From: Candidatus Eiseniibacteriota bacterium
GTDB taxonomy: Bacteria > Eisenbacteria > RBG-16-71-46 > SZUA-252
Direction: 5' to 3'
Assembly: GCA_005893165.1 (NCBI GenBank)
Contig: VBOR01000061.1
Location: 36,555-100,554 of the forward strand
Length of the DNA: 64,000 nt
Every line of letters starts with the position of its first letter. The first letter of the stretch is position 1. This document shows positions 3,354 to 5,601 of the stretch, in pieces. The notes beneath the pieces are model-generated. The model worked only from the letters and a program-made list of their open reading frames with translations. It was not told the origin of the DNA and ran no database searches. The position numbers and the translations under genes were made by a program.

Positions 3354-4181
3354 GTGGATGGCCGGGATCAAGCCGCGCCACGCGCGACCTCCACGATCAA
3401 GATGATCCTGGGCCTCACGCGGCCCAGCCGAGGCACGATTCTCATCGAAGGCCGGGATCCCTGGGACCCCGACGCACGGAGGAAACTTGGCTACCTTCCC
3501 GAAAACCCCTGCTTCTACGACCATCTCAGCGCGGTGGAGTATCTGGACCTGGTGGGCTCGCTCTTCGGAATTCGCGCGGAGACGCGTCGCGCACGCTCGC
3601 AGGCGCTCCTCCAGCGCCTCGGCCTCGGCGCGCATGCGCGCAAGCCGCTACGGAAATTCTCGAAGGGGATGACGCAGCGGGTCGGCGTCGCCCAGGCGCT
3701 CCTGAACGAGCCCAACTTCCTGGTGCTGGACGAGCCCATGTCGGGGCTGGATCCGATCGGGCGTTCCGAGGTGAAGCAGATCCTCCGCGAGGAACGCGAG
3801 CGCGGGACCACGATCCTCATGAGCTCCCACGTGCTCGCGGAGACGGAGTCCCTGTGCGATCGGGTGGCGATCCTCCACGGGGGCCGGGTGCTGGAGGTGG
3901 GCTCGGTGAAGGGGCTCCTTTCCTCCGGCGTCGTCGAGTGGGAGATCGGCCTCGAGTCCCTCACGCCGGACCGCGCCTTGGCACTCCGGGCGCAGGGACA
4001 CCGGGCCGATTCCGTCGGGACGCGCTGGGTCGTGCGGGTCGGCAGCGAGTCCGCCCTTCAATCGGTCCTGGGTGAGCTCGTGCGCGCCGGGATCAAGATC
4101 GGCTCCGTCGAGCCCCGGCGGGAGAGCCTGGAGGAACACTTCGTCCGGGCCCTCGGAGCGAGGCGGGAGGGGAGCCTGTGA
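3354..4181 (+). CDS. ABC transporter ATP-binding protein with a degenerate nucleotide-binding site (PilH-like position in the pil cluster); possibly non-catalytic or a pseudogene
   Basis: ABC fold motifs: TIKMILGL, Q-loop region GYLPENP (Q replaced by E), signature FSKGMTQR (degenerate LSGGQ), Walker B LVLDEPMSGLDP and H-loop MSSHVL. No GxxGxGKS/T Walker A is present. The corresponding stretch reads GRDQAAPRATS. The open frame begins only at 3333. Confidence 0.65.
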   Translation: MDGRDQAAPRATSTIKMILGLTRPSRGTILIEGRDPWDPDARRKLGYLPENPCFYDHLSAVEYLDLVGSLFGIRAETRRARSQALLQRLGLGAHARKPLRKFSKGMTQRVGVAQALLNEPNFLVLDEPMSGLDPIGRSEVKQILREERERGTTILMSSHVLAETESLCDRVAILHGGRVLEVGSVKGLLSSGVVEWEIGLESLTPDRALALRAQGHRADSVGTRWVVRVGSESALQSVLGELVRAGIKIGSVEPRRESLEEHFVRALGARREGSL

Positions 4182-4942
4182 CCCGCACCCTCGCCATCGC
4201 GCAGAACACGCTGCGCGAGGTGGCCCGGGAGCGGGTGGTGCTGGTGCTCGCCCTGTTCGGGCTGATGCTCCTGATGGGATCCCAGGTGCTCTCGCCGCTG
4301 GCGCTGGGCGAGGGCAGGAAGGTGGTCATCGATTTCGGGCTCGCGGGCTCCTCGTTCCTGGCCACGATCCTGTGCGTCTTCCTGGGGTCGAGCCTGCTCC
4401 ACAAGGAGCTCGAGCGGAGGACCGTCTACGCCGTGCTCGCCAAGCCGATCCGGCGCGAGGAATTCCTGCTGGGCAAGTTCCTCGGCCTCTGGGTCACCGC
4501 CGCGATGCTCCTCGGGGGGATGGCCGTCATTCTCCTCGCGGTCGTGACCGTGGCCTACCACGACACGCCCTGGCAGATCCTGGGGGCCGTGGGCCTGAAC
4601 CTGGTCGAGCTCGGGATCGTGACCGCGGTCGTCGTCTTCTTCTCTTCCTTCACGACCCCCGCGCTCACGGCCTTCTTCGCCGTCGCGGCGACGGTGGCCG
4701 GGCACTTCGCCGAGGACCTCCGCTATTTCGCCTCGCAGGGCACTCCCGGAATCCGGGCGATGGTGGAAGCCGCCTACTGGATGCTTCCGCACCTGGATCT
4801 CTTCAACGCGCGCGGCCTCGTCGTGCACGGGGCGTCGGTGGGCGTGGAGCGGCTCCTCTACGCCTTCTCCTACGGGCTCCTCTACGTGATCGGAATGCTG
4901 ATCCTCGCGGGAACGATCTTCCGCAGGAGGGAGTTCCGTTGA
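4178..4942 (+). CDS. ABC-2 family transporter permease (PilI-like)
   Basis: Six-TM hydrophobic profile typical of ABC-2 permeases. GTG 4178 overlaps the ATPase stop (translational coupling). Confidence 0.75.
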   Translation: MTRTLAIAQNTLREVARERVVLVLALFGLMLLMGSQVLSPLALGEGRKVVIDFGLAGSSFLATILCVFLGSSLLHKELERRTVYAVLAKPIRREEFLLGKFLGLWVTAAMLLGGMAVILLAVVTVAYHDTPWQILGAVGLNLVELGIVTAVVVFFSSFTTPALTAFFAVAATVAGHFAEDLRYFASQGTPGIRAMVEAAYWMLPHLDLFNARGLVVHGASVGVERLLYAFSYGLLYVIGMLILAGTIFRRREFR

Positions 4943-5601
4943 CGCGCTCCCTCGACCGGGGCACTCTCGTCGGGATCGCCTTGGCGGCGCTCTTCCTGGC
5001 GTGCTCGGGATGGGTGCACCACGCCGCGGGGTCGAAGGTCCGCGGGGTGCCGGAGGAGGAGCTCCTCTATTATCCCTCGGGAGTCCTGGTGCGCCGCGCG
5101 GCCCTGGGGTACGAGACGGCGGCGGCGGATCTGGCCTGGCTCCGGAGCGTGCAGTACTACGGCGAGCACCGGCTCACCGACCAGAAGTTCGATAGGATCG
5201 ACCACGTCATGCGGATCGTGGCCGAGCTGGATCCGCAGTTCCTCGAAGCCTACGTCTTCGGAGGGTTCGTGCTGGCGCAGGAGATGCGGCAACCCGAGCG
5301 GGGTCTTGAGCTCCTCGAGCTGGGGCTGCGCGCGAATCCCACGAGCTGGCGTCTCGCCTTCGAGACGGGATTCCTTCATTACGTGTGCCGCCATGACGAT
5401 CGATCGGCGGGGCGATACTTCACGTGGGCGAGCCGGATGCCCGATCATGCGGACTACACCGAGCGCTTCGCGGCGTTCGCGAACCAGAAGGCGGGGAACA
5501 CCGGGATGGCGATCCTGCTCTGGAAGCACACGCTCCTGACGGGCAACGCGTACATGCAGGAAGTCGCGCGGAAGGAGCTCCGCCGGTTGGGAGCGATGTG
5601 A
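4939..5601 (+). CDS. Hypothetical membrane-anchored protein (N-terminal TM helix plus ~190-aa soluble domain); candidate accessory subunit of the pilus-associated ABC system
   Basis: This is the C-terminal segment of the 4072..5601 ORF. TTG 4939 follows the RBS aggaggg and overlaps the permease stop by 4 nt. The protein has an N-terminal hydrophobic helix (LVGIALAALFLACSGWV) followed by a conserved-looking domain. Confidence 0.55.
   Translation: MTRSLDRGTLVGIALAALFLACSGWVHHAAGSKVRGVPEEELLYYPSGVLVRRAALGYETAAADLAWLRSVQYYGEHRLTDQKFDRIDHVMRIVAELDPQFLEAYVFGGFVLAQEMRQPERGLELLELGLRANPTSWRLAFETGFLHYVCRHDDRSAGRYFTWASRMPDHADYTERFAAFANQKAGNTGMAILLWKHTLLTGNAYMQEVARKELRRLGAM

Follow-up and report, generated by a model that had tools for sequence, protein, structure and literature searches.

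In Myxococcus xanthus, a three-gene ATP-binding cassette (ABC) module, PilG/PilH/PilI, lies between pilA and pilD and is followed by pilMNOPQ. As stated in passages of PMC3724824 that cite Wu, Wu, Cheng and Kaiser (1998), deleting any one of pilG, pilH or pilI abolishes pili, and the three proteins are said to be necessary for pilin translocation across the inner membrane. The distribution of PilG/H/I beyond the myxobacteria has also been noted (PMC6060248). Here, we looked at an ABC-2 module that takes the same place in a type IV pilus cluster of a Candidatus Eisenbacteria metagenome-assembled genome (MAG), within a stretch of 64,000 nt of contig VBOR01000061.1 that was analysed as a whole and is called the window. 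Its gene order is pilS-pilR-pilA-pilA-ATPase-permease-P220-pilD-...-pilMNOPQ, where P220 stands for an accessory protein of 220 residues. The ATPase of this module, as deposited, has no Walker A motif, and an earlier annotation made from the letters of the DNA only (the sequence-only reading) had taken it for either a non-catalytic pseudo-ATPase or a decaying gene. The results presented below indicate that the Walker-A-less ATPase is very probably an artefact of the deposited sequence.

The deposited ATPase gene lacks 160 nt carried by its own population

The open reading frame (ORF) found at 3354..4181 is indeed devoid of a Walker A motif. Its N-terminus, MDGRDQAAPRATSTIKMILGL, is without the GxxGxGK[ST] expected of an ABC nucleotide-binding domain (NBD; PF00005), and the Pfam ABC_tran (PF00005) match, with an E-value of 8.2e-19, starts at profile position 25 of 137, meaning that the N-terminal strands and the P-loop are absent from the ORF. 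The other landmarks that had been listed are all there, namely GYLPENP, the signature FSKGMTQR, the SSH of the H-loop with its histidine, and the Walker B LVLDEPMSGLDP / FLVLDEPMSGLDP (hhhhDEP; FLVLDEP). The frame opens at 3333, which is 21 nt 5' of the GTG as had been reported, no Shine-Dalgarno sequence was found before GTG 3354, and codons 1-11 are out-of-frame upstream sequence. The authentic ATPase frame is read from 3386 onward, where it corresponds to residues 78-341 and the stop of the intact protein, P0001. The sequence-only reading had seen nothing ABC-like in the 140 nt upstream. This has to be revised, as the true first 23 codons of the gene (MSQERDESRRRPSWMAGIKPRHA) are located there in another frame, from an ATG at 3316 preceded by a GGAGGG Shine-Dalgarno sequence. 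Translated from this ATG, the window gives MSQERDESRRRPSWMAGIKPRHARPPRSR, then a stop after 29 codons.

Six comparator loci (L001-L006) were retrieved via the exact permease sequence from independent metagenome assemblies of different samples, some being IDBA-style scaffolds and others MEGAHIT k141 contigs. They share the gene order of the window, but with a 341-aa ATPase and a 257-aa PilD, and are 99.3-99.96% identical to it at the nucleotide level over long aligned segments (BLASTN); they come from the window's own Candidatus Eisenbacteria population. At the ATPase junction the BLASTN offset passes from 1663 to 1823 in L001-L003, the same break is found in L004-L006, and the microhomology is 0 nt. 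The 160 nt missing from the window encode residues 24-77 of P0001 (54 residues), including GLLGPNGAGK, that is the initial beta-strands together with a perfect Walker A, and around the deletion P0001 reads ...LKLDAVVKTYRDPMTLKPFTAVDGVSLTLERGEIFGLLGPNGAGK/TSTIKM.... As 160 is not divisible by three, the reading frame is shifted at the junction. P0001 (341 aa, GPNGAGKT) represents 27 contigs, and past the break the window protein agrees with it at 100%. The gene is therefore an ABC NBD gene, of which the window copy alone is broken. A correction restoring GxxGxGK[ST], which had been named beforehand as the test able to overturn the loss, was thus the right one to look for.

The supposition that a small internal rearrangement took out the Walker A segment was also sound, the event being this 160-nt deletion. 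Regarding the GATCAAG direct repeat to which it had been tied, the two copies do exist in the window, at 3366 and 3395, but they are not its cause. Both are kept in the intact gene, 189 nt apart, one lying 13 nt before the left breakpoint and the other 10 nt after the right one. As neither is at a breakpoint and both survive, the deletion was not mediated by them, and we rejected the repeat as its substrate.

A genuine pseudogene would show the same junction in independent assemblies. The ATPase junction was seen in none of the six comparators and in none of the 27 contigs with the P0001 allele, and a 32-mer spanning it had no match among the 241 million records of the JGI metagenome collection, in which the window's population is present with intact sequence (L012, L098). 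A scan of GTDB genomes returned matches from other species only, the best at 88% identity.

Homologues keep the Walker A motif together with a Q-loop Glu and an SKGM signature

The Walker A motif GxxGxGK[ST] was found in 118 of the 120 closest homologues and in every full-length gene among 80 species-level genomes belonging to Eisenbacteria, Acidobacteriota, Bdellovibrionota and other phyla. The lineage-wide loss that an alignment of homologues might have revealed is not what we observed, the loss being private to one record. The two homologues devoid of the motif are a 5'-truncated call and a PLASS read-level protein assembly (P0024). The latter, in which a 73-residue internal deletion removes Walker A, was considered as a second natural case and rejected, because it is a read-level protein assembly from the SRC source with no contig behind it. 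We take SRC to be the PLASS-built Soil Reference Catalog, presumably prone to chimeras. A chimera-like copy of the ATPase, P0015, comes from the same source.

The conserved strand and Walker A region encoded by the missing 160 nt is shared by all homologues, to identities as low as 35%, and is also seen in solved ABC structures. An indel is formally symmetrical, and this symmetry is all that speaks for an insertion in the comparators with the window as the ancestral state; faced with such conservation we give that reading no credence, and the 160 nt are, by all alignments made, to be regarded as ancestral.

We then come to the Q-loop and signature, which had been described as degenerate. GYLPENP is present in 107/120 homologues and [FY]SKGMTQR in 117/120; a Glu occupies the Q-loop position in 118/120 homologues and 77/80 genomes, and [FY]SKGM is found in 73/80 genomes. 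The Q-loop glutamine is therefore absent, Glu being aligned to the canonical Gln (GYLPEN vs GVCPQY), while FSKGMTQR is aligned to LSGGMQRK and YSGGNKRK of ABCA7. In the alignment to solved ABCA-family NBDs, the position of Glu is precisely that of the Q-loop Gln, and SKGM is matched with SGG(M/N). The Q-loop Glu and SKGM, which accompany an intact catalytic P-loop in about 75 of the 80 genomes, spread over several phyla, are hallmarks of the subfamily rather than signs of degeneration. GYLPE and [FY]SKGM, which are the family consensus, are thus normal traits of this ABC-2 subfamily. Searched against families and structures, the intact ATPase gave its best matches with drrA (TIGR01188) at 3.3e-64, GldA (TIGR03522) at 3.1e-50, NosF (7o0y) at 3.7e-47 and ABCA7 at 6e-64. 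The scores are below the curated equivalog cut-offs, indicating that it belongs to none of drrA, GldA and NosF, and NCBIfam and Pfam hold no specific family for it beyond generic ABC-2.

These results bear directly on the idea of a functional pseudo-ATPase that has lost ATP binding and serves the permease as a partner, be it regulatory or structural. When the window ORF is looked at alone, its helical subdomain, Walker B, H-loop and C-terminal domain are intact, as such a protein would require. However, the P-loop is lost in no orthologue, so that nothing like a conserved pseudo-ATPase is seen; the ORF begins with 11 codons left over from another frame and has no ribosome-binding site, and the true start leads to a 29-residue peptide. 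Moreover, from what is established on ABC NBD structure, a RecA-like core would not form in a domain whose first beta-strands are missing as well. We consider this possibility extremely improbable. We see no sign of a new class of pilus ATPases devoid of Walker A, and the lack of the motif is very probably not a real feature.

The window carries a series of private deletions of similar size

Further comparators were used for the rest of the window (L007, L009-L014, L095, L096, L098). At least five deletions found only in the window are spread over 47 kb, of 160, 141, 140, 133 and 156 nt (Table 1). Each of the five is absent from all of the 3-6 comparators covering the site, the microhomology at the junctions is 0-5 nt, and the alignments are otherwise gap-free up to 11.7 kb. 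A sixth deletion is possible at 58451, where the single comparator available (L095) leaves the direction of the difference uncertain.

The second deletion removes 47 residues of the prepilin peptidase PilD (FLNVV...LLRGRC), including both CxxC pairs, and the window PilD, annotated as prepilin peptidase in GenBank (TMQ49094.1), has 210 aa vs 257 aa elsewhere. With the fifth, rpoD, the gene of the housekeeping sigma factor, loses its 23 C-terminal codons together with its stop, the spacer is gone, and the tRNA-Met gene lacks its initial 17 nt (L011 18486..18502). As a result, the window rpoD (43180..45222), found in a dnaG-rpoD context, continues into the tRNA region and forms an ORF of 680 aa. 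With ARAGORN, tRNA-Met was detected in L011 (18486..18560) and not in the window, and the tRNA-Val downstream (44966..45041) is intact in the window. The 32-mer across the rpoD junction gave 0 matches in the same 241 million JGI records. A viable cell carrying this rpoD/tRNA-Met lesion is unlikely. That gaps of the same size also cut rpoD and a tRNA gene, regardless of how essential a gene is, points to a technical origin.

The lesions are part of the public record and recur, at other sites, in a sibling MAG

The 275-aa ATPase and the 210-aa PilD of the window are exactly TMQ49091.1 and TMQ49094.1, encoded on a contig of 106,584 bp in a Candidatus Eisenbacteria MAG. As these proteins read across the junctions, the deletions are in the public record and were not made by cutting the window. 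A sibling MAG from the same population, GCA_005893195.1, was found with contig VBOV01000080.1 (L099), which contains no Ns. Three deletions of its own, measuring 100, 106 and 99 nt, lie at about 473, 2394 and 7192 within 12.8 kb of this contig, and their sites differ from those of the window. They hit the middle of the ATPase gene, pilD and pilM: the ATPase is split, PilD is split and PilM is fused to PilN. Such N-free deletions in a second record suggest a systematic defect in the curated MAG set. Within one MAG the gaps are all of much the same size, 133-160 nt in the window vs 99-106 nt in L099, and in this size the two MAGs differ.

It could be argued that a real and very recent strain deletion produced a null PilH-like ATPase and, together with the in-frame PilD deletion, a pilus-deficient soil variant. 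The lesions are in the deposited record with PGAP proteins spanning the junctions, the two pil-cluster lesions are only 2.3 kb apart, and the frameshift combined with the absence of a Shine-Dalgarno sequence at GTG 3354 would make a true null with likely polar effects on the coupled permease. Contrarily, rpoD, tRNA-Met and MutS2 are also truncated by same-sized gaps, the sibling MAG has a different deletion set, the junction is in none of the 27 contigs with the intact allele nor in any JGI contig, and no secondary decay is seen. We therefore hold a real deletion to be very unlikely. The decaying gene put forward by the sequence-only reading fares no better, the rest of the protein being 100% identical to the intact allele and the lesion being one in a series that cuts rpoD and a tRNA. 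Marginally less likely still is a restricted version, in which the 160-nt and 141-nt deletions only are real and mark a pilus-null soil Eisenbacterium subpopulation with the PilH-like ATPase and the Cys-motif region of PilD both inactivated, under pilus-dependent phage or predator pressure for example, the other gaps being unrelated assembly errors.

How an artefact of this kind might have come about is suggested by related scaffolds. N runs of 10-297 nt are found in ENA scaffolds with CRIT18-1 record names, which we regard as raw assemblies from the same project, and there are none in the curated MAG contigs. From its accession series and the VBOX01 isolate naming, the record would belong to the project of PMC6784897, which describes IDBA-UD assembly and scaffolding, with scaffolding errors being corrected afterwards in the dereplicated bins (PMC6784897). 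Pieces of about 133-160 nt would have dropped out of the MAG record, with their flanks joined without Ns, probably because scaffold gaps or flagged error regions left by IDBA-UD scaffolding and the later error correction were collapsed, closed or stripped. One such gap would have fallen on codons 24-77 of the ATPase gene, with loss of the first beta-strands and the P-loop and a shift of the frame, after which the annotator would have called the longest ORF still available, starting at an internal GTG. As encoded by the organism itself, the protein is a normal 341-aa DrrA-like ABC-2 nucleotide-binding subunit with GPNGAGKT, Walker B, H-loop, Q-loop Glu and SKGM.

Several points weigh against this explanation. 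The junction was looked for in assembled contigs, so that its absence from the source sample is an indirect conclusion. As the raw scaffold of the window was not located, stripped N gaps as the mechanism are inferred. The deleted segments are not enriched for single-nucleotide polymorphisms (SNPs) among the comparators, and the rpoD/tRNA site, at which two other contigs stop, is the only one with an obvious cause for a break in the assembly graph. Finally, loss-of-function mutations in pilus genes do arise naturally, for instance under phage pressure. Strain variation within the deleted segments was considered as what broke the assembly graphs and rejected, given the lack of SNP enrichment.

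The pilus-cluster module

The features of the window are collected in Table 1.

Table 1. Positions of the pilus-cluster genes and of the deletion junctions in the window
Feature	Position	Strand	Details
pilA1 (tandem pilin)	2297..2701	+	Pfam N_methyl; gene call in L001
pilA2 (tandem pilin)	2738..3145	+	Pfam N_methyl; gene call in L001
Authentic 5' end of the ATPase gene	3316..3385	+	Matches L001 4979..5048, P0001 residues 1-23
ATPase ORF of the sequence-only reading	3354..4181	+	GTG start, 275 aa; GenBank TMQ49091.1
Deletion junction 1	3385..3386	.	160 nt missing vs all comparators (L001 5049..5208)
ABC-2 permease, PilI-like	4178..4942	+	254 aa; Pfam ABC2_membrane_2, E 8.5e-9; six transmembrane helices (6-TM)
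220-aa accessory protein (P220)	4939..5601	+	One predicted N-terminal membrane helix, then a helical-repeat region
Prepilin peptidase PilD with deletion 2	5601..6233	+	141 nt missing in frame, at about 5659/5660
Deletion junction 3	20906..20910	.	140 nt, spacer between a HEAT-repeat gene and dprA; L007, L009, L010 offsets -9196 to -9056
Deletion junction 4	39031..39034	.	133 nt inside the MutS2 gene, frameshift; L012 offsets -26640 to -26507, same break in L011, L013, L014
Deletion junction 5	44854	.	156 nt; L011-L014 and L096 offsets
Possible sixth deletion	58451	.	85 nt, intergenic; L095 offsets

The permease and its 220-aa partner had been described as intact, and this was confirmed. The exact permease protein is encoded on 21 other contigs. 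P220 is full length, being called with an identical length in five of the six comparator loci, the sixth (L005) having no gene call there, and its stretch lies within a block aligned at 99.6-99.96%. A search of P220 in Pfam and NCBIfam gave nothing above threshold, with sub-threshold TPR matches only. When P220 was compared with the ORFs located upstream of the ATPase in Bdellovibrionota, hhalign returned a probability of 99.3% and an E-value of 8.6e-21; on this profile comparison, P220 and the Bdellovibrionota ORF in the PilG position form one family. The P220-type accessory family, for which neither Pfam nor NCBIfam has a model, adjoins PilH/PilI-like genes in Eisenbacteria, Acidobacteriota, Omnitrophota and Bdellovibrionota, in a permuted order (e.g. 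L059 6005..6982).

Start and stop codons overlap along the module, with GTGA at 4178, TTGA at 4939 and ATGTGATG at 5598, indicating that the ATPase is translationally coupled to the permease and P220. Except where a contig end has cut genes off, the 26 Eisenbacteria-like loci have the order ATPase-permease-P220-PilD, which is also seen in Acidobacteriota. An ATPase-permease-PilD-PilM arrangement is shared by Bdellovibrionota and Acidobacteriota, and in the former a 310-340-aa ORF lies just upstream. An ATPase, a permease and an accessory protein thus stand inside a type IVa pilus cluster near pilA and pilD, as in a PilGHI-type module, and the PilG/H/I position assigned by the sequence-only reading was correct. 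The ATPase, the 6-TM permease and the membrane-anchored helical-repeat protein together make up an ordinary PilG/H/I-like module between pilA and pilD, which, by analogy with M. xanthus, may support pilin export or pilus assembly. The genetic evidence for such a role comes from M. xanthus (PMC3724824).

The two tandem pilins, pilA1 and pilA2, are 89-93% identical. Many of the SNPs that separate the assemblies in the pil region fall in or around this pair, and in scaffold L005 it is collapsed to a single copy. Exact-protein look-ups of the window pilA2 allele, the shortened PilD and ORF 57853..59058 found no record elsewhere. The pil cluster also contains an ORF of 714 aa on the minus strand at 7520..9664 (mechanical ORF 7520..9781, 753 aa). 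It has no Pfam match, is conserved in several Eisenbacteria loci, and its translation looks like that of a multi-pass membrane protein.

Other features of the window

A very large ORF of 2058 aa is found at 50789..56965, where another scaffold has calls for a subtilase (838 aa) and a 1254-aa protein with immunoglobulin (Ig)-like repeats; differences in repeat length between assemblies are located at about 55318..55373. A tRNA-Sec gene (30425..30522) lies just 3' of a gene with AIRS/AIRS_C domains, possibly a selD-like selenophosphate synthetase, which hints at the use of selenocysteine in this Eisenbacterium. In the JGI contig L098 (4603..4606), a neighbouring ABC exporter gene has a 32-nt deletion compared with window 49381..49408. 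Together with the SRC lesions (P0024, P0015), this deletion indicates that small assembly lesions are not unique to the window's record.

Comparison with known systems

TMQ49091.1 and TMQ49094.1, as well as the rpoD, mutS2 and tRNA-Met of the same contig, are to be seen as products of a defective record. When degenerate motifs, truncated domains or pseudogenes are mined, N-free gaps of 100-160 nt should be expected every 4-10 kb in both MAGs, and perhaps in others of the set. Beyond this record, the PilGHI-like module, including the accessory family of the PilG position, is widespread, being found in Eisenbacteria, Acidobacteriota and Bdellovibrionota.

Compared with the PilG/PilH/PilI module of M. 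xanthus, the order here is ATPase, permease and accessory protein, whereas there the accessory gene comes first, and the two are likened by synteny. The Myxococcota loci returned by our searches (L048, L058) are other ABC paralogues without pil neighbours. On the strength of the shared position, the Eisenbacteria module may be homologous to PilG/H/I and have a role in pilus assembly. The intact ATPase has the same domain layout as the ABC-2 subunits of the DrrA, GldA and NosF type (also PDB 8k1n, Rv1218c, and ABCA-family NBDs), with a C-terminal DrrA-like regulatory domain. It differs in that the solved relatives have a Q-loop Gln and SGG(M/N), whereas here Glu and SKGM are found subfamily-wide and are normal for PilH-like ABC-2 ATPases.

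The degenerate ABC sites of heterodimeric exporters and of some regulatory NBDs keep the fold and the P-loop backbone and are conserved across orthologues. The window ORF, without its catalytic motif, looks superficially like such degenerate nucleotide-binding sites. Unlike them, it has 54 residues missing in one record that are present in all relatives.

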